A stretch of 64,000 nucleotides of DNA from Bacteroidales bacterium (GTDB lineage: Bacteria > Bacteroidota > Bacteroidia > Bacteroidales > VadinHA17). Below are positions 28,406-39,108 of the stretch, one piece after another. The stretch is taken from NCBI GenBank assembly GCA_030596125.1, contig JAUVKT010000003.1:108-64107 (forward strand), in the 5' to 3' direction. The notes beneath the pieces were generated by a model, which was given only the letters and a program-made list of their open reading frames with translations, had not been told where the DNA came from and did not search any database. Every line of letters begins with the position of its first letter. Position 1 is the stretch's first letter. The position numbers and the translations under genes are program-made.

Positions 28406-28948
28406 ATGCAGACCCAAAAATGTAAGCATCAATGGGAAATGGTTAATACCAACCCTGGTTTTATTCTCACAGAAGCATGTCATAAGTGTAGCCAGGTATC
28501 AACATATTTCTCCCGGGAGGATAATCCACCGTTTGAAGAATACAGAGATGGTGAACATTTCTGGAACGTGATGGCAAGTGCTCAGTCTGTCAGGTTTGAC
28601 CTGAAATGTAAATTATGCAACACTCTTGTTACATTTGACGAGCTATCCAGTTTATTGCTTTGCACAGGATGCAAAAAAGATTGCGATGTGTACAGACTGA
28701 TGGAGAAATATTCAGGTAAACGCATATGGTTTTATGTTGCTTTTGGGTTTAAACCGTATGCAGATAAATTAATGTTGAGCGATGAAAAGATAAAGATCCT
28801 GGAGGATTATTATAATCAAAGGCGGGATTCAACCAACTCCTCCATTAAAATTGTGTCATTTGAAATGATAGATGATCCTGACTCATGTGCCGGGGAGTTC
28901 ATAATAGACAGCAGTATGTTACTGCTTGCACCCCCTGAGAAAAAGTAA
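28406..28948 (+). CDS. Cys-rich hypothetical protein (putative zinc ribbons)
   Basis: 180 aa with three CxxC pairs (CHKC, CKLC, CTGC). No family recognised. Confidence 0.45.
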   Translation: MQTQKCKHQWEMVNTNPGFILTEACHKCSQVSTYFSREDNPPFEEYRDGEHFWNVMASAQSVRFDLKCKLCNTLVTFDELSSLLLCTGCKKDCDVYRLMEKYSGKRIWFYVAFGFKPYADKLMLSDEKIKILEDYYNQRRDSTNSSIKIVSFEMIDDPDSCAGEFIIDSSMLLLAPPEKK

Positions 28949-28980
28949 ACTGTTAATAAACTCTCATATAAAACGTTATT

Positions 28981-29310
28981 ATGAAATTAAATGAGATTAT
29001 TGAGAAATTATCCCTTAAGGTACTAACCAATCTGGAAGACAAGGATATAACAGGTGTGTATATATCCGATATGCTTTCGGATGTAATGAGCAAAGCCGGA
29101 GCCGGTAATATTTGGGTTACCATTCAGTCCCATAAGAATATTATAGCTGCTGCCAACCTGATAGATATTGCAGCAATAATAATATCGCAGGGAACAGATA
29201 TTCCTGAGGAGACCATTGAACTGGCTAATCGTTATAATGTTGTTCTTCTGGGTTCTGATGATTCAACCTTTGTGTTAGGAGGTAAACTTTATCAGATTGG
29301 AATAGCATAA
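28981..29310 (+). CDS. DRTGG domain protein
   Basis: 109 aa. The pattern (ITGVYISDMLSDVM, WVTIQSH, NLIDIAAIII) is typical of the small DRTGG proteins found in hydrogenase-type operons. Confidence 0.65.
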   Translation: MKLNEIIEKLSLKVLTNLEDKDITGVYISDMLSDVMSKAGAGNIWVTIQSHKNIIAAANLIDIAAIIISQGTDIPEETIELANRYNVVLLGSDDSTFVLGGKLYQIGIA

Positions 29311-30147
29311 GTGATATCCCGGTCTATGAAGGAATCAATCCCTAATATAGTCGATATAAAGCGTATTCAGGAAACTCTTAAGGCAAAGCTCTGGGTGAAG
29401 AATACCGCTGAAGGTGAATATATAACAGGTATTTATGCCTCTGACCTGATGAGCGATGTTCTTGCGTATGGTAATTCAGGATCAGTGCTTCTGACCGGAC
29501 TGAACTCAGTTCAGGCAGTAATCTCTGCTTATATGGCAGAATTTAAAGGCATCATATTTATCAGGGGTAAAGTGCCGGAAAAGGAAACTCTGAATTTTGC
29601 TAAAGAAAAGGGCTTATTCATATTCTCAACAGAGGATGATATGTTTGAAGCCTGTGTCAAAATTGCGAATATCGAAGGAAAGGCTCCTGAAATAATTGAT
29701 GAGACTAAAACAGAAAAAAAAGCCTGGAATATCATTACTCATACCTTTTATATTGATGGTCAGGATTTTGCGAGTGCAGGGATGGTGTCAACACAAGTGA
29801 AGGCTATATTGAAATCAATTGGATATGACCCGTTATTGATCAGAAGGGCAGCTATCTCCACCTACGAAGCCGAAATGAATGTAGTGATGCATGCCAGGAA
29901 AGCTGAAGTAACTCTGACAGCAAGCGATAAAGAGATATATATAATAATCATTGATGAAGGAAAAGGTATCAAAGATATCGACCAGGCGATGCAGGTAGGA
30001 TACTCGACAGCCACAGAGGAGCAAAGAGCACTGGGTTTTGGAGCTGGTATGGGTTTGCCGAATATAAAAAAGAATGCTGATGTCCTGGAAATTGATAGCG
30101 TAGTGGATACCGGGACGAGGATGGAAATAGTTTTTTATGTAAAATGA
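29311..30147 (+). CDS. DRTGG domain plus HATPase_c (anti-sigma-factor-like Ser/Thr kinase) protein
   Basis: The N-terminal half parallels the preceding ORF. The C-terminal half has EAEMNVVMHA, DEGKGI and GFGAGMGLPN (N, G1 and G2 boxes). GTG start; the alternative ATG is at 29326. Confidence 0.65.
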   Translation: MISRSMKESIPNIVDIKRIQETLKAKLWVKNTAEGEYITGIYASDLMSDVLAYGNSGSVLLTGLNSVQAVISAYMAEFKGIIFIRGKVPEKETLNFAKEKGLFIFSTEDDMFEACVKIANIEGKAPEIIDETKTEKKAWNIITHTFYIDGQDFASAGMVSTQVKAILKSIGYDPLLIRRAAISTYEAEMNVVMHARKAEVTLTASDKEIYIIIIDEGKGIKDIDQAMQVGYSTATEEQRALGFGAGMGLPNIKKNADVLEIDSVVDTGTRMEIVFYVK

Positions 30148-31403
30148 GATATTATCATTCACATGTAATAATCCAGGAAAAGTGCACTGGCAGGCTGACA
30201 TGTATAAGAACCTGTCCAACCCAGGCTCTGCGTTATCGAAACAATTCGATCATATTCCATGATGACCTCTGTGTTGACTGCGGTGCATGTATAAATGCGT
30301 GCGAGGAGGGTGTGTTTGTTCCTATTATTGACGAGATAGCCGATTTTGAGAAATTTGAATTCAAAATTGTCATCCCATCCCATACTCTTTATACTCAGTT
30401 TGGGCTGAATGTCCATCCCGGACTGATTCATCGCGCACTGTTAAACATTGGTTTTGATGCAGTGCACGAGATTTCAAAACATGCCTATGAATTGAGTTAT
30501 GTTGTTTCGGAAAGTCTTAAATCAAACATACAGCGCAAACCAATAATAAGTAACTTCTGTCCATCACTTATAAGATTGGTACAAGTCAGTTATCCGAATC
30601 TGATTGATTTGATCTCTCCGTTTGATGTTTCGCGTGAACTGGCAGCAAAAGAGGCCAAGGTAAAATATTCCCGTGAACTCGGTCTGTCACAGGATAAAAT
30701 AGGGGTCATCTTTATCAGTCCCTGTCCGGCCATGGTGGTTTCGATAAAACAACCGGCTGAAAAAGATAAATCATGGATCGATGGTGCTATCTCAATCAAT
30801 GATATTTATAACAGCATACTCCCGGAAATCCTAAGAATCCAGGAGGAATCTTCAGAAGAGGCAGAGAATGACTTTTTCTATTATGGTAAGAGCTGGGGTG
30901 TACTTGGTTCAATTCAAAAGCATCATGATCCGGAACATACTATATCAGTGGCCGGTATAGATAATATTAAGATGATATTGGATGACATTGAAGATTCCAG
31001 ACTTCAGAATGTAGATTATATTGAAGCATTTACCTGTCCTCAGGGATGTATCAGTGGGGCTTATTGTGTGGAAAATCCTTATATCTCCAGAAACACAGCT
31101 ATTATGTTTGAAAAAAGATATGGAGATCCTCCTGAAATTGATAATAAAGAAATTCATCTCAGGATGGATAAGAATTATTATAAGTTAGACAAGAAGGTAA
31201 TACCAAGGATTACACGGTCAATGAGCGGGGACATAACCATCTCGATAAAAAGAATGAATCAAAAACAAAAGATTCTGAGGAAGCTTCCTAATAAAAACTG
31301 TGGCTTATGTGGAGCTCCGACATGCGAAACTTTTGCACAGGATTGTGCCTGGGGTGATGCTGAACTGACCGATTGTATTTTTCTGAAATCAAATTCCCAT
31401 TGA
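30144..31403 (+). CDS. [FeFe]-hydrogenase-like protein (two 4Fe-4S motifs, Fe_hyd_lg_C-like core, C-terminal putative Fe-S domain)
   Basis: CxxCxxCxxxC motif, H-cluster-like motifs FCPS / SPCPAM / FTCPQGCISG and a C-terminal CGLCGAPTCETFAQDC. ATGA overlap with the upstream gene. Confidence 0.65.
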   Translation: MRYYHSHVIIQEKCTGRLTCIRTCPTQALRYRNNSIIFHDDLCVDCGACINACEEGVFVPIIDEIADFEKFEFKIVIPSHTLYTQFGLNVHPGLIHRALLNIGFDAVHEISKHAYELSYVVSESLKSNIQRKPIISNFCPSLIRLVQVSYPNLIDLISPFDVSRELAAKEAKVKYSRELGLSQDKIGVIFISPCPAMVVSIKQPAEKDKSWIDGAISINDIYNSILPEILRIQEESSEEAENDFFYYGKSWGVLGSIQKHHDPEHTISVAGIDNIKMILDDIEDSRLQNVDYIEAFTCPQGCISGAYCVENPYISRNTAIMFEKRYGDPPEIDNKEIHLRMDKNYYKLDKKVIPRITRSMSGDITISIKRMNQKQKILRKLPNKNCGLCGAPTCETFAQDCAWGDAELTDCIFLKSNSH

Positions 31404-31415
31404 AACCAGTATTTT

Positions 31416-31874
31416 ATGAACCAACTGAACTCATCATTCACTGAAACTCTGAACAACCATTTGGTTGAAGAAGGCAGCCTGATACCACTTCTGCAAAAAG
31501 CTCAGGAACAGGATGGATACATCTCACCGGAAAAAGTCGCACAAATTTCAGAGTATCTGAAAATGACCGAAAGCCAGGTCTATGGTGTAGCCTCTTTTTA
31601 TTCTCAGTTCCGGTTTACTCCACCAGGCGAACATTCAATAAGTGTTTGTCTTGGAACAGCATGCCATGTAAACGGAGGCGAAACCTTGCTTAATACCATA
31701 GGAAGAGATCTGGATGTAAGACCGGGAGAATCAACTTCTGACAAGAAGTTTGATCTGAAAAGGGTTGCCTGTCTGGGATGCTGTGCCCTGGCTCCGGTTG
31801 TAAAGATCGATGATGATATTTACAGCAAGGTGAATGTCGTTAAACTTAAAGAGATTATAAGCAATTATGAGTAA
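31416..31874 (+). CDS. NuoE/HydC-like [2Fe-2S] subunit
   Basis: 152 aa with CLGTACHV...CLGCCALAP, the thioredoxin-like ferredoxin motif. Confidence 0.85.
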   Translation: MNQLNSSFTETLNNHLVEEGSLIPLLQKAQEQDGYISPEKVAQISEYLKMTESQVYGVASFYSQFRFTPPGEHSISVCLGTACHVNGGETLLNTIGRDLDVRPGESTSDKKFDLKRVACLGCCALAPVVKIDDDIYSKVNVVKLKEIISNYE

Positions 31875-33741
31875 TATAGATACTATCCGGAAGAAAAGTG
31901 TCGCTGAATGGAAGGATCTAAACCAACCTGAAGAGCCCGTTATATTTCTCGGTATGGCCTCCTGTGGTAAAGCTGCCGGTGCTGATAAGGTTAAAAAGGC
32001 AATACAGGAAGCACTTAAGAAGCATAAGATAAAAGCCAGGTTGATCGAGGTCGGATGTATTGGGACCTGTTACCTTGAACCAATTGTCGATATTGTTGCT
32101 TACGGGCAACCACGAATCTCTTATGGTAACGTTGACGAAAAAAGAGCCGAATTTATAGTACGGAAGCATCTTGTGGAAAAAGACCTCTCCAAAACACATC
32201 CACTTGGTCATCTGGGCGTGGAATCATTTAATGGAATTCCTCACCTATTTGAGCATCCAATGCTTAAATCGCAGGTCAGGATTGTTACAAAGAATTGCGG
32301 ACTAATAGATCCGGGTAGTATTAATCATTACCTGGCCAATGATGGGTATTCCGGATTTTCAAAAGCCTTGAAGAAAAGACCTGAGGAAGTGATCGAAGAG
32401 ATCAGCCATGCAGGATTAAGGGGGAGGGGAGGTGCTGGATTTCTCACTGGTCGCAAGTGGAAGACATGTCATGATACTAAGTCAGATGTAAAATACCTGG
32501 TATGCAATGCCGATGAAGGTGATCCCGGAGCATTTATGAACCGGCTTCTAATCGAGAGCGATCCCCATGCCCTGCTTGAAGGTATGCTTATCGCTGCCTA
32601 CGCAATAGGTGCTACACTGGGATATATTTACATACGTGCTGAATATCCGCTTGCAATATTAAGATTGCAGAATGCGCTGAAACAGGTAACAGATATTGGT
32701 TTGCTTGGAAAAAAGATATTGGGATCAGAGTTTTCATTCTCAATTAAGATTAAAGAGGGTGCCGGTGCCTTTGTTTGCGGGGAAGAAACGGCATTGATAC
32801 ATTCAATTGAAGGTAAGAGGGGGATGCCAAGAACCAGGCCTCCCTTCCCGGCTCAGAAGGGATTATATCAGAAACCAACTGTGATAAATAACGTTGAAAC
32901 CCTGGGTACTGTGCCTCATATACTTAGAAATGGTTCTGAGTGGTACCGTCAGTTTGGGGTGGAAGGGAACTTTGGCACAAAAACATTCTCTCTTGTCGGG
33001 AAAATAAGAAGATCAGGATTAATTGAAGTTCCTCTTGGGACTCCATTACGAAAGATCATATTCGATATAGGAGGAGGTACACAGAAACCATTTAAAGCAG
33101 TACAGACGGGGGGACCATCCGGCGGTTGTATCCCTTTGGAATTGCTTGATACACCTGTGACTTACGAAACTCTGGCAAATATTGGGTCAATAATGGGCTC
33201 AGGCGGATTGATCGTTTTGGATGATGATACCTGTGTTGTTGATCTTGCAAGATATTTCCTCGATTTCATACAGCAGGAATCATGTGGAAAGTGTACGCCA
33301 TGTCGTGTAGGTACCCGCCACATGGTTGAAATGCTTGAGACGATCTGTCATGGTGAAGCTTCACCGGATATACTGGACAAACTGGAGTCGATGGCAAAGC
33401 TCGTGCAATCCACATCATTATGTGGTTTGGGCCAGACGGCGCCTAATTCAGTACTTACAACCTTAAAGTACTTCCGTCCTGAATATGTTAAGCATGTAAA
33501 TGAATACTATTGTCCTGCTCTTGTATGTAGCGATTTGATTGAATATTCGATTGTTGAGGAAAATTGTACCGGGTGTCAGCGCTGTGTGAGTGTTTGTCCT
33601 ACCGGAGCTATTACAGGACCAAGGTCAGAGCCTCATAATCTTGATATTTCCAAATGTATCAAATGCCGTGCTTGTTATGATGTATGTCGTTTTGATGCTA
33701 TTGCAGGTAATGCTATTGTAATTACATCGGGAAAAGAATAA
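31867..33741 (+). CDS. NuoF/HydB-like flavoprotein subunit (NADH/FMN binding, several Fe-S clusters)
   Basis: GRGGAGFLTGRKWK, ESCGKCTPCRVG, two C-terminal 4Fe-4S ferredoxin motifs and an N-terminal thioredoxin-like domain. It overlaps nuoE-like by 8 nt. Confidence 0.85.
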   Translation: MSNIDTIRKKSVAEWKDLNQPEEPVIFLGMASCGKAAGADKVKKAIQEALKKHKIKARLIEVGCIGTCYLEPIVDIVAYGQPRISYGNVDEKRAEFIVRKHLVEKDLSKTHPLGHLGVESFNGIPHLFEHPMLKSQVRIVTKNCGLIDPGSINHYLANDGYSGFSKALKKRPEEVIEEISHAGLRGRGGAGFLTGRKWKTCHDTKSDVKYLVCNADEGDPGAFMNRLLIESDPHALLEGMLIAAYAIGATLGYIYIRAEYPLAILRLQNALKQVTDIGLLGKKILGSEFSFSIKIKEGAGAFVCGEETALIHSIEGKRGMPRTRPPFPAQKGLYQKPTVINNVETLGTVPHILRNGSEWYRQFGVEGNFGTKTFSLVGKIRRSGLIEVPLGTPLRKIIFDIGGGTQKPFKAVQTGGPSGGCIPLELLDTPVTYETLANIGSIMGSGGLIVLDDDTCVVDLARYFLDFIQQESCGKCTPCRVGTRHMVEMLETICHGEASPDILDKLESMAKLVQSTSLCGLGQTAPNSVLTTLKYFRPEYVKHVNEYYCPALVCSDLIEYSIVEENCTGCQRCVSVCPTGAITGPRSEPHNLDISKCIKCRACYDVCRFDAIAGNAIVITSGKE

Positions 33742-36068
33742 TGGAGATAATAATAAACAATAAGACCATCGAGGTCAACAGAGAATTGACAGTTCTTGAG
33801 GCTGCAGAAGAAAATGGGATATACATCCCAAAAATGTGTGCCCATCCTGAACTTGTCCCATATGGAGGTTGTCGTCTCTGCATAGTGGAAATTGAAGGAA
33901 GAAAAGGATATCCAACTTCATGTACAACCCTTGTTGAGGATGGGATGATAGTTCGTACTGACTCAAATATCCTTCAGGAGATGCGTATCAATCTGGTACA
34001 GTTGATTCTAAGTGAACATCCTTCTGCATGCCTGTTATGTGAGGATATTGACGGATGCTCGCTATTCCAGGAAACAATACGTAAGGTTGGAGTTACAACA
34101 GGTTGCAGGTGGTGTCCGAAAGATAAGGATTGTGAGTTGCAGAGAGTGGTGGAGTCCTTCGGTATCAGTGAGCTTTCTCTCCCCGGATTATACAGGGATC
34201 TTCCTGTTGAAAAATATGACCCATTCTTTGATAGGGACTACAATCTGTGCATATACTGTGGACGCTGTGTGCGAATTTGCGATGAATATCGTAAAAGCTC
34301 CGTTCTTGCTCTGAGGCAGAGAGGAAAACATACTACCATAGGGCCATCCTTTGATGACAATCATACTGACGCCGGTTGTGAATATTGCGGTGCATGTGTC
34401 TCAGTATGCCCTACCGGAGCAATGTCAGAGAAGAGCAGAAAATGGTGGGGGAATCCTGATACCTATACTTCATCTGTTTGTCCGCTGTGCAGCATAAATT
34501 GCGAGATACAGGTACTTAGCCTGCACAATAAGATAGTTGGTACTATTCCACCTGGAAATCCTCATGAGACAGCTGGAGAGTTATGTGTTAAAGGACGGTT
34601 TTGCCTGAGTGAGATAGTAAACCGTACTGAGAGAATACTTGAACCACAGTTCCGCTATCCTGAAGGCTATGGAATTGTTCAATGGGATGAAGCTATTGCA
34701 AAGGGAAGTGAACTGCTTAATGCCACTCTTCCAGGGAGGTCTGCAGTTTTTCTTTCACCTGATCTTTCATTGGAGGAGTATCAGGCTGCTAAGATTTTTT
34801 CAGAAAAAGTACTGAAAACGGATGAAATTACATCATCCCGTTTAGACAGTAAACAGATCGCCTGTACAAAGCTGGCTTTTGACTCAGTTCCTCTCGAAAA
34901 GGTCAAAAAGGCTGACCTGATTATCTCCTTTTTCCTCAATGGTAATTACAATTATGGCCCCTTGACTATGGCTGTTAAAGAGGCTGCTTCATCAAATATA
35001 CCATATTATCAGATTGGTTGGATAAAAGACACAACATCAAGATTTGCCAGACATAATATCATTCCGGCGCCGGGAGATGAAGTGAAGATTCTTGACAAGA
35101 TTATTGAATGTCTTGAAAATGGGACCTGTGATAATGATGTGATCAGGGAACTGTCAGATCAATTAAGGGAAATTGGCAATACGGTGTTAATAGTTGGACC
35201 GTGGATACTCTCATTAACCAATTTTACCATAATTCTTGACAGGATCAGGAAGATAATAAGCATTACAGGGTCAAAGCTGTATATGCCTGATCCTTATGGA
35301 AATCTCAAAGGTATGCTGGCATCTGTTGCTCTGAAACCGCTTGAGTCAGTTATTGAAAAGATCAACAGGGGTGAAATAGATCTGATGTATCTTATTGGAG
35401 ATATTCCGATTTCAGCAAGAAAAAAGGTTAAACATGTTTTTTACCAGAGTGCTTTCCCTGCACCGGAAGACCTTATTCCGGATGTGATCCTCCCATCAAC
35501 TCTATGGGGCGAAAGAGGTGGTACATGGGCTGGTAAAAATGGCAGCACTGTTATGCTAAAGCAGGTCGCAAAAGCGCATGATTATGCACTTTCTCATATA
35601 GAAATATTTACCCGTTTTGCTTCTGCATCTAAGGTGAAAGGTGCCAATGCTGCTATTAAAAGTAAATCAGGAAAAGTCCCGGTAAAATTGAAACCAAAAA
35701 TGCCCGATGAGTTTGCATTAGCTTCAGTCCGGACTACCCTGGTGTCTCCCGGAAAAAAATTACCATTTGTAATAGTACAGGAAAAGTCACCGCATGTCTA
35801 TATGAATCTGGATTTAAGTATTGGGATAGATGGTTTTAGTGAACTGGTTAAGCCTGGTCATGTGCAGATAAATGTATCAGATGCAAAAGAGATGGAAATA
35901 AAAGATGGTGATTCTGTTCATATCTCGAATGCCAGAACAGAAAAGACTTACCAGGTGGTGGCAAGAAAGAACATTCACAGGGGTGTAGCCTACCTTACCA
36001 TCCTGAATGAGCGGAGTGATTTCAAATGTAATCCATGTTACGTAAATATAAGGAGAGCTGATGTTTAA
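33741..36068 (+). CDS. NuoG/FdhA-like subunit (2Fe-2S, His-ligated 4Fe-4S, 2x4Fe-4S, short molybdopterin-oxidoreductase-like domain)
   Basis: N-terminal CRLC..C ferredoxin, HPSACLLCEDIDGC, two CxxCxxCxxxCP motifs, the MopB cluster motif CPLCSINC...CVKGRF and a C-terminal beta-barrel-like tail. The start overlaps the upstream stop (TAATG). Confidence 0.7.
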   Translation: MEIIINNKTIEVNRELTVLEAAEENGIYIPKMCAHPELVPYGGCRLCIVEIEGRKGYPTSCTTLVEDGMIVRTDSNILQEMRINLVQLILSEHPSACLLCEDIDGCSLFQETIRKVGVTTGCRWCPKDKDCELQRVVESFGISELSLPGLYRDLPVEKYDPFFDRDYNLCIYCGRCVRICDEYRKSSVLALRQRGKHTTIGPSFDDNHTDAGCEYCGACVSVCPTGAMSEKSRKWWGNPDTYTSSVCPLCSINCEIQVLSLHNKIVGTIPPGNPHETAGELCVKGRFCLSEIVNRTERILEPQFRYPEGYGIVQWDEAIAKGSELLNATLPGRSAVFLSPDLSLEEYQAAKIFSEKVLKTDEITSSRLDSKQIACTKLAFDSVPLEKVKKADLIISFFLNGNYNYGPLTMAVKEAASSNIPYYQIGWIKDTTSRFARHNIIPAPGDEVKILDKIIECLENGTCDNDVIRELSDQLREIGNTVLIVGPWILSLTNFTIILDRIRKIISITGSKLYMPDPYGNLKGMLASVALKPLESVIEKINRGEIDLMYLIGDIPISARKKVKHVFYQSAFPAPEDLIPDVILPSTLWGERGGTWAGKNGSTVMLKQVAKAHDYALSHIEIFTRFASASKVKGANAAIKSKSGKVPVKLKPKMPDEFALASVRTTLVSPGKKLPFVIVQEKSPHVYMNLDLSIGIDGFSELVKPGHVQINVSDAKEMEIKDGDSVHISNARTEKTYQVVARKNIHRGVAYLTILNERSDFKCNPCYVNIRRADV

Positions 36069-36891
36069 AATAATCGAAAGAAAATCGATAGTCCCCAACC
36101 TCCATCTGCTGGTGGTTCACGCCCCCGACGTAGTTGAAACGATACAACCGGGTCAGTTTGTAATTATTCATTGCGGTGAAGGATCGGAACGGATACCACT
36201 CACAGCAGCTGACTGGGACAGGGAAGAAGGGACCCTGTCAATTGTATTCATGGAGGTAGGAACCTCAACAGGAAAGCTGGCTATGTTGCAGCCAGGTGAT
36301 GAAATCCCGACAGTTGTAGGTCCGCTTGGAGTGCCTATAGAGATTGAAAAATTTGGTGTGGTTGTTTGTATTGGTGGTTGCTTTGGACTGGGTTCAATCT
36401 TTCCGGTTGTGAGGGCTTTGAAAGAAAAGGGGAATGAAGTGATAACTATGCTGGAAGGCAGAAGTAAAAATCTTTTATACTGGGAGGAAAAACTGTCAAA
36501 GTACAGTGATAAGGTAATAAAACTTACACGGGACGGCAGTTATGGCTATAAGGGTCATGTAAAAAAAGGATCTGAGTTACTGCGGGAACTGGGAATAAAA
36601 CCCGACAGGGTGATAGCTAACGGGTGTACTACACTTTCATACCTCGCTTCAAGGGACTATGCACACTTCGATGTACCTGTGATTGTTACCCTCAATACTA
36701 TTATGATTGATGGAACAGGCATGTGCGGTGTTTGTCGTTGTACTGTTGATGGCAAGATGAAATTTGCCTGCGTCGATGGTCCAAGCTTCGATGGCAGGCT
36801 TGTCGATTGGGAAGAGCTGGCTGCAAGAAGAAAACAGTACATATCAGAAGAAGCATTTCTTGTTCACCATTCAGGATGTGGAGGATTTTAA
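36061..36891 (+). CDS. NfnA-like subunit (PyrK/sulfide dehydrogenase beta family, FAD/NAD-binding, C-terminal 2Fe-2S)
   Basis: 276 aa with a ferredoxin-reductase fold and CGVCRCTVDGKMKFACVDGP. It overlaps the upstream gene by 8 nt. Confidence 0.75.
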   Translation: MFKIIERKSIVPNLHLLVVHAPDVVETIQPGQFVIIHCGEGSERIPLTAADWDREEGTLSIVFMEVGTSTGKLAMLQPGDEIPTVVGPLGVPIEIEKFGVVVCIGGCFGLGSIFPVVRALKEKGNEVITMLEGRSKNLLYWEEKLSKYSDKVIKLTRDGSYGYKGHVKKGSELLRELGIKPDRVIANGCTTLSYLASRDYAHFDVPVIVTLNTIMIDGTGMCGVCRCTVDGKMKFACVDGPSFDGRLVDWEELAARRKQYISEEAFLVHHSGCGGF

Positions 36892-36892
36892 A

Positions 36893-38296
36893 ATGGCAGG
36901 AAAGAAAAAACTCAACCTAAACAGGGTGGATATGCCCAAGCAGGCAGATTTCATCCGTAAACGTAATTTTAAAGAGGTCGCCCTTGGATACAGTGCTGAA
37001 GATGCAATTGAGGAGGCGGGCAGGTGTCTTGACTGTAAAAAACCTTTTTGTGTTGATGGATGCCCGGTTGAAATAGATATCCCGGGTTTTATCAGAGCAA
37101 TAGCAGAAGAGGATTTTGCCCTTGCAATAAAAATATTAAAAGAAAAGAATTGTCTTCCAGCAGTCTGCGGGAGGGTTTGTCCCCAGGAAGAGCAATGTGA
37201 AATAAAATGTATTCTTGAAAAGAAAGGTGCTCCGATAGCCATTGGACGTCTCGAACGGTTTGCTGCAGAGTGGGAATCACAACAGGACAGTATTGAAATG
37301 CCTGTGATTGATGATAAAACAGGCAAAAAAGTTGCTGTTATTGGTTCTGGACCTGCCGGGATAACTGTGGCAGGGGATCTGATATTACAGGGACATGATG
37401 TAACAATGTATGAAGCCCTTCATGAGCCCGGTGGTGTACTTACTTATGGGATACCTGAATTCCGTTTACCGGCAAGTGTGGTTACACGGGAAATAGAATA
37501 CCTGCAAAAATTGGGGGTCAAACTTATATGCAATTTTGTTGTAGGTAAAACAAGATCATTAAAGAAGATACTTGATGAGTACGATGCAGTTTTTGTTGGC
37601 ACCGGAGCCGGACTCCCATGGTTTATGAATATACCGGGAGAAAACTTGAATGGAGTATATTCTGCCAATGAGTATCTGACACGTGTTAACCTTATGCGTG
37701 GTTTTCAGTATCCAAAAACCTATACCCCCGTTGTAAGACATAAAAAAGTGGCTGTAGTTGGCGGTGGTAATGTGGCAATGGATTGCGCCAGAACGGCTCT
37801 CAGGCTTGGTGCAGAAGAGGCTGTAATTGTTTATCGCAGATCAGAGACCGAACTTCCTGCTCGTGAAGAGGAGTACGAGAATGCTGATGAGGAAGGAGTT
37901 AAATTCAGTTTCTTAACACTGCCTGAAAAACTTTACGGGGATAAAAATGGTTGGCTTAAAGAGATAGAATGTTCAAAGATGGAACTGGGTGAACCTGACG
38001 CATCAGGAAGACGGAGACCAATAAGAATTGATGGTTCAGAATTCAGGATGAAGATGGATGCCTGTATTGTTGCCATTGGAAACAGTCCAAACCCGATTAT
38101 CCCTCAGACTACCCCTGAACTTGCGGTATCAAAATGGGGAACTATTGAGGTGGATGAGGAGTCCTTTAAGACGACTATCGATAGGGTATGGGCAGGTGGT
38201 GATATTGTATCGGGAGCTGCAACTGTGATCCTGGCTATGGGAGCTGGCCGGAAAGCTGCACGGTCTATGCATGAATATCTTAGCAGCCTGACTTAA
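36893..38296 (+). CDS. NfnB-like subunit (GltD/SudA family NADPH-dependent oxidoreductase)
   Basis: CLDCKKPFCVDGCP, CGRVCPQEEQCE, IGSGPAGITVAG and VVGGGNVAMDCA. Start trimmed to MAGKKK, 2 nt after the nfnA-like stop. Confidence 0.8.
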   Translation: MAGKKKLNLNRVDMPKQADFIRKRNFKEVALGYSAEDAIEEAGRCLDCKKPFCVDGCPVEIDIPGFIRAIAEEDFALAIKILKEKNCLPAVCGRVCPQEEQCEIKCILEKKGAPIAIGRLERFAAEWESQQDSIEMPVIDDKTGKKVAVIGSGPAGITVAGDLILQGHDVTMYEALHEPGGVLTYGIPEFRLPASVVTREIEYLQKLGVKLICNFVVGKTRSLKKILDEYDAVFVGTGAGLPWFMNIPGENLNGVYSANEYLTRVNLMRGFQYPKTYTPVVRHKKVAVVGGGNVAMDCARTALRLGAEEAVIVYRRSETELPAREEEYENADEEGVKFSFLTLPEKLYGDKNGWLKEIECSKMELGEPDASGRRRPIRIDGSEFRMKMDACIVAIGNSPNPIIPQTTPELAVSKWGTIEVDEESFKTTIDRVWAGGDIVSGAATVILAMGAGRKAARSMHEYLSSLT

Positions 38297-38550: not shown

Positions 38551-39108
38551 TCAGTCTTGAAACCAATTCACCTCGACACACTCCCTTAGTTGCAACTTTG
38601 CCCTGTGAATTATCTGCCAGTAATTAGTAGGGGCAAGTTCGAGTTCCTGACAAATATCTTCACCCTTCTTATTCATCAGGTATTTCAATTTTACGCACAT
38701 GATCCACTGTTCGGGCAGGGCATCAAGGCACTCTTTTAATATCTTCTGAAACTCGTCATCATCAAGAAGATTCTTCTCTTCATGGTGCCAATCAGCAGGC
38801 TTTTTGCTATGATACCATGTCCCGTTTACATCAAAGAAGTTTGAAAGCGTTTGATCATCCTTTTCAACAGGGTTGTTAACCTTTTTTCTATAAACATCAA
38901 TGATCTTATAGTTAAGTATTGATATGAGCCACGTTTTAGGAGAGCTGTCTCCTTTGAAAGAAGTCAGCTTCTCGGCTGCGGCCAGAAATGTATCTTGCAC
39001 AAGATCTTTTGCAAGTTCAGGGTCAGTAACTTTATGGATTGCCCACGAATAGAGGTCATTTGTATATTTCCCAACCCATTCGCCGAGATTATGCTTTTTT
39101 TCAGTCAT
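38551..39108 (-). CDS. ECF-type RNA polymerase sigma-70 family factor
   Basis: 185 aa with region 2 (DLVQDTFL) and region 4 (LPEQWIMCVKLKY...CQELELAPTNYWQIIHRAKLQLRE). Confidence 0.8.
   Translation of the reverse strand: MTEKKHNLGEWVGKYTNDLYSWAIHKVTDPELAKDLVQDTFLAAAEKLTSFKGDSSPKTWLISILNYKIIDVYRKKVNNPVEKDDQTLSNFFDVNGTWYHSKKPADWHHEEKNLLDDDEFQKILKECLDALPEQWIMCVKLKYLMNKKGEDICQELELAPTNYWQIIHRAKLQLRECVEVNWFQD

Follow-up and report, generated by a model that had tools for sequence, protein, structure and literature searches.

Electron bifurcation is the route by which strict anaerobes obtain low-potential ferredoxin (Fd) and keep NADH and NADPH in balance at the thermodynamic limit. The Nfn reaction is known to be carried out by either of two unrelated machines, NfnSL (NfnAB) and NfnABC/Stn, which have been described as almost mutually exclusive; the gene cluster considered here, which lies in a 64,000-nucleotide (nt) stretch of DNA from a Bacteroidales bacterium (contig JAUVKT010000003.1, positions 108 to 64,107 of the forward strand; hereafter the window), links both. 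In its core, genes for a NuoE/NuoF-like pair (bfuC, bfuB) and a NuoG/Fdh-like protein (bfuA) are followed directly by genes for two Nfn subunits (nfnS, nfnL). Structures of NfnABC/Stn (Nfn-Bfu) enzymes have been solved for Sporomusa ovata, Caldicellulosiruptor saccharolyticus, and Thermococcus sibiricus (PDB 8OH5, 9BOV, and 9N5U). The Bfu enzymes have been divided into four types, among which Nfn-Bfu is listed only as the three-subunit type 1 (Schut 2022); four gene patterns are described for Nfn, none of them joined to BfuA (Liang 2019); and structure papers of 2025, including Li 2025, treat NfnSL and NfnABC as unrelated alternatives. No description of a five-subunit or BfuA::NfnS enzyme was found in the literature searched, outside which most subscription journals lie, and a prior description is possible. 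Within that literature (Schut 2022; Kumar 2023; Liang 2019), the five-subunit layout is uncharacterized, as the original prediction for this DNA had supposed. We describe it as a real, widespread, and apparently uncharacterized Bfu/Nfn variant.

The five-gene arrangement is far beyond chance. A genome scan with a BfuA alignment gave 47 loci, every one from a metagenome-assembled genome (MAG), in Bacteroidota, Chlorobiota, Cloacimonadota, Armatimonadota, Aminicenantes/Acidobacteriota, Desulfuromonadaceae, KSB1, Chloroflexota, and Planctomycetota; BfuA has at least 120 full-length relatives at 46 to 83% identity (counted among clusters at 90% identity), whose named sources are all MAGs, and the habitats of the carrier MAGs are sediments, peat, and digesters. 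When nine proteins of the window were compared by tblastn with all loci, the order BfuC-BfuB-BfuA-NfnS-NfnL was found in all 40 loci that were informative, that is, that had enough downstream DNA, across at least nine phyla; the seven loci without nfnS and nfnL stop inside or just past the bfuA gene. The linkage of nfnS and nfnL holds even where BfuA is 30 to 34% identical, the 8-nt overlap between bfuA and nfnS is present in 41 of the 48 loci examined, and two NfnL homologs (73 to 74% identity) that were picked blind to context sit in the same cluster. A survey of gene order had been proposed earlier as a check on the prediction, and it returned the predicted order in every informative locus.

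In the window, all cluster genes lie on the plus strand, and coordinates are given as window positions. An 8-nt overlap (ATGAGTAA, 31867 to 31874) joins bfuC to bfuB, a 1-nt overlap at 33741 (TAATG) joins bfuB to bfuA, a second 8-nt overlap (ATGTTTAA, 36061 to 36068) joins bfuA to nfnS, and a 1-nt gap (TAA A ATG) separates nfnS from nfnL, which starts at 36893. Open reading frame (ORF) calls and junction sequences reproduced the five ORFs, the overlaps, and the gap that had been predicted, and Pfam and NCBIfam matches upheld the NuoE/NuoF/NuoG-like and NfnA/NfnB-like family labels. The idea of a tight five-gene unit stands as regards the coupling, which is real, but the unit is larger: four more same-strand genes precede bfuC, and the five core genes make up the distal portion of a cluster of nine (28406 to 38296). 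An ORF at 36764 to 38296 is a TTG-extended reading of nfnL that starts inside nfnS, and homology favors the ATG at 36893; a 151-amino-acid (aa) antisense ORF at 36871 to 37326 is almost certainly spurious. A scan for sigma-70 promoters and terminators was uninformative (37 found against 27.7 expected), promoters of Bacteroidota being outside the scope of the tool.

Natural fusion proteins connect the two halves of the cluster. The best matches of an exhaustive HMMER search with NfnS (1.84 billion representatives) were proteins in which, according to Pfam, a full or shortened BfuA is followed by a C-terminal NfnS: P0258 (1,079 aa), P0261 (1,080 aa), P0278 (1,023 aa), P0244 (838 aa), P0246 (840 aa), P0241 (636 aa), and P0409. 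The fusion proteins carry the doubled cysteine motif of BfuA, including its extra CxxCx5C (Cys3) copy, which is described below; linkers of tens of residues lie between the parts, so that frameshift artifacts do not explain them, and several of them are found again on separate contigs as long as 255 kb. The source of P0258 is a Promethearchaeia (Asgard) MAG; its locus, L057 (5676 to 12648), encodes BfuC-BfuB-BfuA::NfnS-NfnL with an 8-nt overlap before nfnL and no upstream sensor genes; the cluster there adjoins genes for glutamate dehydrogenase and an isocitrate dehydrogenase family member. In P0241, NfnS is joined directly after the Fe4S4-domain cluster and the pterin-like domain is absent, a layout that hints at NfnS being placed where the pterin module would be. 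P0241 and the 838- to 840-aa proteins P0244 and P0246 are without all or most of the pterin-like domain, which thus seems dispensable for the connection between BfuA and NfnS.

The fused NfnS belongs to a subtype that is marked by two cysteines, Cys107 and Cys189. Both are invariant in 44 of 44 cluster-linked NfnS sequences, in which the two loops read GGC[FY]G and GC; the canonical loops are GGG(V/I)G in NfnS of Pyrococcus furiosus and Thermotoga maritima and in PyrK, and VGP in the two NfnS proteins. Across 150 family representatives that we compared, the two residues covary strictly: 24 have both (C/C type), and the sole apparent exceptions are truncated fragments. The BfuA fusions are all of the C/C type; NfnS of P. 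furiosus and T. maritima, the NfnS-NfnL fusions, and the other members have Gly and Pro (G/P). In every context examined, the altered-loop NfnS stands beside or is fused to a partner module. At one locus (L058), the ORF upstream from a C/C NfnS ends with a Molydop_binding domain and is BfuA-like by that mark. At another (L056, 371 to 6704), C/C NfnS and NfnL lie directly behind NiFe-hydrogenase-like genes (Complex1_30kDa, an HdrB-like CCG protein, Complex1_49kDa/NiFeSe, and Oxidored_q6+Fer4) with 4-nt overlaps; this could be an H2-linked NfnSL complex with hydrogen in place of NADH, and the context suggests that the C/C subtype docks onto iron-sulfur partner modules. A stand-alone NfnS (P0257) sits on a 1.2-kb contig that gave no gene context.

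We favor the reading that BfuABC and NfnSL form one physical complex with NADH/NADPH/ferredoxin oxidoreductase function, to which we assign a probability of roughly 0.6; most probably, judging from the sequences, the two modules of the cluster together act as a transhydrogenase of the Nfn type. A candidate bifurcating complex linking NADH, NADPH, and ferredoxin had been proposed for this locus, and the core motifs, the gene order, the fusions, and the NfnS subtype support the proposal; the idea of a single assembly, in particular, is strengthened by the BfuA::NfnS proteins and by the partner-specific NfnS. The elements of the interpretation held; the four genes ahead of bfuC and the changed NAD(H) loop of NfnS had been missed.

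The NuoEF-like pair is, by its motifs, a bifurcating core of the HydBC/Bfu type. BfuC is of the 2Fe-2S_thioredx/NuoE type according to Pfam and is encoded adjoining BfuB, which combines the Complex1_51K and NADH_4Fe-4S domains with a C-terminal 2x[4Fe-4S] region (Fer4 domains at residues 561 to 611). The BfuB motifs DEGDPGAFMNR and GAGAFVCGEE (in the window, VCNADEGDPGAFMNR and KEGAGAFVCGEETALI) agree with the DEGDPGAFM(D/N)R and GAGAFVCGEE of bifurcating Bfu, as opposed to DEGEPG or DESEPG and GAGAY of nonbifurcating proteins (Schut 2022, Suppl. Fig. 10), and motifs of this kind separate bifurcating Bfu from the nonbifurcating NuoF, FdsB, and HoxF (Schut 2022, Suppl. Figs. 9 and 10). The B2/Zn site of three cysteines and a histidine, DTC...H-x5-C-x4-C (KHVNEYYCPALVC), aligns with NfnB of C. 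saccharolyticus and T. sibiricus and with the S. ovata protein. Among PDB entries, BfuB matches C. saccharolyticus NfnB (723 bits), T. sibiricus NfnB (713), and S. ovata StnB (693) best, followed by NiFe-BfuB (672) and HydB (655, 615, and 581) and, far lower, by FdsB (426) and Nqo1 (383); its placement in the Nfn-associated group is thus a ranking by bit score and not a tree. The motifs, the B2/Zn site, the B3/B4 domain, and this ranking agree with the bifurcating type that had been predicted for the pair. An assignment to the N-module of respiratory complex I (NuoEFG) was rejected: BfuB has extra C-terminal ferredoxin domains, and the flanks examined, in a window of which part of the genes are annotated, have no nuo membrane genes.

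Some loci from Aminicenantes, Acidobacteria, and Bacteroidales (L005/L006, at 4770 to 7865 in L005, L040, and L052) encode a 1,031-aa BfuB fused to a GltD/NfnL-like domain of its own. This domain is about 35% identical to NfnL, separate NfnS and NfnL are also present, and some of these loci have an additional gene for a 127-aa thioredoxin-like [2Fe-2S] protein. Such variants would carry two NADP(H)-type modules.

BfuA is predicted with confidence to be a catalytically empty NuoG/Fdh-like wire. It matches Fer2_4, NADH-G_4Fe-4S_3, Fer4_Nqo3, and Molybdop_Fe4S4 in Pfam, with marginal matches to Molybdopterin and Molydop_binding, and the ligands of its [2Fe-2S], His-[4Fe-4S], two ferredoxin-type, and Fe4S4-domain clusters are invariant in 64 homologs; past residue 288, the same homologs have no conserved cysteine except C766. 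An AlphaFold2 (AF2) model (mean predicted local distance difference test score, 80.7; >90 over the pterin-like domain) has the fold of formate dehydrogenase (FDH) and NuoG, and tungsten- and molybdenum-dependent FDHs are among its top Foldseek matches. This DMSO reductase fold and the weak Pfam matches are what would be expected if BfuA were an active Mo/W FDH and the complex an Fdh-Bfu enzyme linked to NADP. The FDH reading was nevertheless rejected, and we give it almost no credence, as the pterin domain is degenerate, bfuA has no in-frame TGA, and the dyad of selenocysteine (Sec) or Cys and His is absent. In a subprofile of residues 285 to 470 compared with an F420-dependent FDH (9t1s_L), "itssvldenli" stands opposite "vdhcarlXhsa", so that the dyad position is occupied by Ser370-Lys371, in a column that is variable in the family. 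The whole BfuA profile scores best against C. saccharolyticus NfnA, whose pterin site is incomplete and empty (Li 2025). The claim that the NuoG-like protein has no FDH or hydrogenase site is therefore borne out, there being no conserved cysteine between residues 290 and 765 and a variable Ser-Lys at the dyad. Without the dyad, BfuABC would need a partner module.

The alignment of BfuA with C. saccharolyticus NfnA falls into two pieces (residues 2 to 113 with 5 to 121 and 125 to 654 with 568 to 1128), and the NfnL-like insert of about 446 residues in NfnABC/Stn (approximately residues 122 to 567 of C. saccharolyticus NfnA) maps to residues 114 to 124 of BfuA. The insert site coincides with a doubled cluster motif, H93-x3-C97-x2-C100-x5-C106 ... 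C122-x2-C125-x5-C131-ELQ, all seven ligands of which are invariant in the 46 locus homologs and the window, including those at 30 to 34% identity. Canonical NuoG and HydA have one copy of this motif, and alignments with FdsA and NiFe-BfuA likewise show one copy against two in BfuA. The confidence of the AF2 model is low around the extra Cys3 motif.

As had been proposed, the Nfn pair closely resembles true NfnAB: the score of NfnL is 558 bits with T. maritima NfnB and 521 with P. furiosus NfnL, compared with 299 to 341 against the GltD-like domains of Stn/NfnABC, and NfnS scores 248 bits against P. furiosus NfnS and 216 against T. maritima NfnA. In NfnL, the eight cysteines, CPQEEQCE, and GIPEFRLP are all conserved among 44 homologs; CPQEEQCE is common to the NfnB sequences of T. 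maritima and P. furiosus (alignments to 4ylf_B and 5jca_L), and the Arg of GIPEFRLP is the equivalent of R201 of the P. furiosus protein. NfnS keeps the FAD motif ERIPLT and the Asp/Cys3 [2Fe-2S] motif IDGTGMCGVCR...FACVDGP, and the change is in the NAD(H) loops, which lowers the likelihood that the system is just two known enzymes added together. Its C-terminal tail HHSGCGG (residues 266 to 276, 36856 to 36891), which includes a cysteine, is conserved in most cluster-linked NfnS. Cys273 was rejected as a subtype-specific residue, a C-terminal cysteine being common in many canonical NfnS too, and His166 was rejected as part of a new metal site, as it is present in PyrK and absent from the fusions.

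These comparisons bear on another explanation, according to which the system is a split NfnABC/Stn whose NfnL FAD is nonbifurcating and whose NfnS is accessory or vestigial. Electrons would pass from NADPH through the NfnL FAD and NfnL [4Fe-4S] clusters to BfuA and BfuBC, in the reaction 2 NADPH + NAD+ + Fd(ox) <-> 2 NADP+ + NADH + Fd(red). It would account for the membership of BfuB and BfuA in the NfnABC similarity group and for the extra BfuA motif at the site of the NfnL insert, and the homologous FAD of Stn is nonbifurcating even though the Arg is conserved in sequence (Kumar 2023). A vestigial NfnS is hard to reconcile, however, with its strict retention at 55 to 89% identity and with its being the subunit that is fused to BfuA. 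The non-Cys ligand of the FAD-proximal cluster, moreover, is Glu in NfnB and Lys in StnC (Kumar 2023); NfnL keeps the NfnB-type CPQEEQCE, in contrast to the Lys ligand of Stn-type enzymes. We regard a split Stn as rather unlikely.

If the five proteins form one complex, as we favor, it would be a soluble multiflavin iron-sulfur enzyme acting as an Nfn-type transhydrogenase. BfuB and BfuC would provide the FMN/[4Fe-4S]/[2Fe-2S] bifurcating core that binds NAD(H) and ferredoxin, BfuA would act as the catalytically dead NuoG/Fdh-like iron-sulfur wire, NfnL would bind NADP(H) at its FAD, and NfnS would be physically attached to BfuA. A possible order of centers is BfuBC, the BfuA clusters, the NfnS FAD, the NfnS [2Fe-2S] cluster, the NfnL FAD with NADP(H), the NfnL [4Fe-4S] clusters, and ferredoxin. 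With its NAD(H) pocket remodeled by Cys107, Cys189, and an aromatic residue at position 108, the NfnS FAD might trade electrons with a BfuA cluster (that of the Fe4S4 domain or one at the extra Cys3 site) rather than with NAD(H); BfuABC would then stand in for NADH at the high-potential branch of NfnSL, which would place two bifurcation centers in series. This series wiring is favored over other connections because NfnS is the subunit fused to BfuA and because the change lies in its NAD(H) pocket, at the face of the a-FAD; it is nevertheless tentative, and we hold it at somewhat less than even odds.

In vivo, NADH and reduced ferredoxin would drive the reduction of NADP+, with a stoichiometry that may differ from the 1:1:2 of Nfn. 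Were both centers to couple, the balance would be 1 NADH + 3 Fd(red, 2e-) + 4 NADP+ -> 4 NADPH, and a series-wired enzyme would be a strongly driven NADPH generator. Alternatively, the NfnL clusters could plug into BfuA with NfnS still using NAD(H), which would lead to a balance of 4 NADPH + 3 NAD+ + Fd(ox), or a single bifurcating center could give the ordinary Nfn reaction. A more specific version of series wiring, which we consider doubtful, is a tandem bifurcase in which the flavin-only site of NfnL and the flavobicluster site of BfuBC work in series and the NfnS pocket has turned into an electron transfer interface through the covarying Cys107 and Cys189, which may form a new metal or cluster site shared with the Cys3 motif of BfuA. 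If true, its NADH:ferredoxin:NADPH stoichiometry would be unlike that of every known transhydrogenase, the C/C-type NfnSL could be a "plug" that serves further donor modules as well, among them the NiFe-hydrogenase-like cluster at L056, and the cluster would be an evolutionary link between NfnSL and NfnABC/Stn.

Several points weigh against the single complex and its series wiring. The likeness of NfnL to stand-alone bifurcating NfnB is about that of orthologs and every cofactor motif is kept, so that NfnSL could still work alone, and the GGxxG backbone of the NfnS loop is kept as well, so that NfnS may still bind NAD(H). With physiological potentials of -280 mV for NADH, -380 mV for NADPH, and -500 mV for ferredoxin (Schut 2022), the mean donor potential of the two-center balance is, by our own arithmetic, about -445 mV for an NADP couple at -380 mV, which would be wasteful. 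All loci come from MAGs or metagenomes. In Clostridium autoethanogenum, nfn adjoins multimeric hydrogenase genes and no complex is claimed (Liang 2019), a precedent for the view that the cluster encodes two independent, cotranscribed enzymes, namely, a stand-alone NfnSL and a BfuABC with a third-substrate partner encoded elsewhere. That view fits the nearness of NfnL and NfnS to characterized NfnAB and the frequent coregulation of redox-balancing genes; it has to contend with BfuA::NfnS fusions in several lineages, with zero exceptions to linkage in 40 loci, with an altered-loop NfnS found only with partner modules in the contexts examined, and with a cluster in which no alternative catalytic partner is conserved. 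On balance, we consider independent enzymes improbable.

Table 1. Features of the nine-gene cluster and of its core proteins in the window
Feature	Position	Strand	Basis
g1, conserved 180-aa protein, first cluster gene	28406-28948	+	No Pfam/NCBIfam match
g2, DRTGG-domain protein, putative regulatory	28981-29310	+	Pfam Hpr_kinase_N/DRTGG
g3, DRTGG + HATPase_c (anti-sigma/Ser-kinase-like)	29311-30147	+	Pfam, TIGR01925-like match
g4, [FeFe]-hydrogenase-like, 419 aa, 2x[4Fe-4S] + H-domain + C-terminal FeS domain	30144-31403	+	Fe_hyd_lg_C, PF04060
BfuC (NuoE/HydC-like), [2Fe-2S] thioredoxin-like subunit	31416-31874	+	PF01257, 163 bits; NF005722
BfuB (NuoF/HydB-like), FMN/NAD(H) site, B1 cluster, B2/Zn site, C-terminal 2x[4Fe-4S]	31867-33741	+	Pfam, PDB matches, bifurcating-type motifs
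BfuA (NuoG/Fdh-like scaffold, 775 aa)	33741-36068	+	Pfam, AF2 model, Foldseek, profile match
Doubled cluster motif in BfuA, at NfnL-insert site of NfnABC/Stn	34017-34133	+	Conservation alignment
Ser370-Lys371 of BfuA, position of FDH Sec/Cys-His dyad	34848-34853	+	Profile versus 9t1s_L
NfnS (NfnA-like), FAD, Asp/Cys3 [2Fe-2S], altered NAD(H) loops	36061-36891	+	PRK06222, 325 bits
NfnS loop C103-I-G-G-C107-F-G, for canonical GGG[VI]G dinucleotide loop	36367-36387	+	Alignments
NfnS Cys189 ("NGC", for canonical "xGP")	36625-36627	+	Alignments
NfnL (NfnB-like), 2x[4Fe-4S], FAD, NADP(H) site	36893-38296	+	TIGR01316 gltA/NfnB, 593 bits

The four genes upstream from bfuC (g1 to g4) are spaced by gaps or overlaps of 0 to 32 nt, with g3 abutting g2 and overlapping g4 by 4 nt, and g4 ends 12 nt before bfuC. 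Homologs of g1 (30 to 70% identity) are found at the same position in most loci, across phyla, and the four genes are coconserved in most loci and rearranged, duplicated, or missing in some; PHP and HATPase variants of the module occur in two loci (L054 and L055). The HydABC operons of Thermotoga and Thermoanaerobacter have a similar accessory set upstream. The gene g4 is always accompanied by the DRTGG and DRTGG-HATPase genes.

The position of g4 raises the question of whether it could be a catalytic hydrogenase subunit that feeds BfuABC, as HytA does in FdhFeFe-Bfu, with NfnSL as the NADP(H) outlet. It has the Fe_hyd_lg_C domain, its H-domain cysteines 139, 194, 298, and 302 are invariant in 39 homologs, it lies just upstream of bfuC, and it is conserved in 39 loci. 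Measured against the [FeFe]-hydrogenase motifs L1 (TSCCPxW), L2 (MPCxxKxxE), and L3 (ExMxCxxGCxxGG), however, it falls short: the proton-relay Cys of TSCCP is replaced by Phe, Tyr, or Ser in 39 of 39 homologs, L1 reading S(S/N)(F/Y)CP, and the residue aligned with the Lys of MPCxxK is Ala in 36 of 39; a Lys one residue past that position is found in 24 of 39, and the window has Met there. Moreover, g4 is dispensable, being absent from an Anaerolineales locus (L047) and from the Asgard locus L057 and duplicated or displaced elsewhere while the five core genes stay together, and the DRTGG and HATPase genes with which it travels are typical of regulation. A catalytic role is thus very improbable. 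From its sequence, g4 is probably a sensor rather than a catalyst, and we read g1 to g4, with low confidence, as a probable regulatory set that senses redox state or H2.

Minus-strand genes lie on both sides of the cluster: a 473-aa ORF without a Pfam match upstream and an extracytoplasmic function (ECF) sigma factor at 38551 to 39108 downstream. The farther flanks hold two-component regulators and a TonB-dependent receptor, in agreement with the Bacteroidales affiliation to which the nearest homologs point; between 38551 and 46370, the minus-strand ECF sigma factor is followed by two-component/PAS signaling genes (hybrid kinases and LuxR- and OmpR-type regulators).

A single complex would add a new subunit type to the Bfu family and would represent a natural case of two distinct bifurcation sites working in series. 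It would hint that Stn originated by fusion of NfnL into BfuA with loss of NfnS, or by the reverse path, and it would change the metabolic reconstructions of the carrier MAGs, in which the genes now carry the labels "NADH dehydrogenase," "glutamate synthase," and "dihydroorotate dehydrogenase-like." A concrete target for mutation is the changed NAD(H) loop of NfnS.

Among known systems, P. furiosus NfnII/Xfn (5VJ7) is an NfnSL paralog whose small subunit, like that of the pair described here, departs from the canonical NAD loop (IGAYTG in Xfn), and Xfn may need a second acceptor of an unknown kind in place of NAD (Kremp 2020); it differs in keeping GP, in having no Cys pair and no Bfu linkage, and in being less similar (176 bits). 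HydABC (FeFe-Bfu) operons share the BfuBC core, but BfuA is without an H-cluster domain, and the sole hydrogenase-like protein, g4, is without key residues of the H-cluster environment. In Bam-Bfu (class II benzoyl-CoA reductase, BamB-I), BfuABC has been proposed to feed a second bifurcating module in series (Schut 2022), much as it may do here; the second module there is HdrA, serving tungsten-dependent ring reduction, whereas here it would be NfnSL, serving NADP(H). NfnSL/NfnAB of T. maritima (4YLF) and P. furiosus (NfnI, 5JCA) has the same cofactor motifs in both subunits; the cluster is not filed as plain NfnSL because its NAD loops are altered (GGC[FY]G and GC versus GGG[VI]G and GP) and because its partner, BfuA, to which the pair is linked or fused, is obligate. 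With NfnABC/Stn it shares the BfuB/BfuC core, the N-terminal [2Fe-2S] and cofactor-less Fdh/NuoG-like domain of BfuA, and an NfnL/GltD-type NADP(H) module. It is not filed there because BfuA is without the insert, having the extra CxxCx5C motif at that position, and because NfnS is present (40 of 40 informative loci), whereas Stn has no NfnA homolog (Kumar 2023); NfnL, too, is a separate protein nearer to true NfnB (558 against 299 to 341 bits). By these similarities, the five-gene system is an unfused relative of the NfnABC/Stn enzymes, which carry an inserted NfnL-like domain within BfuA and have no NfnS.

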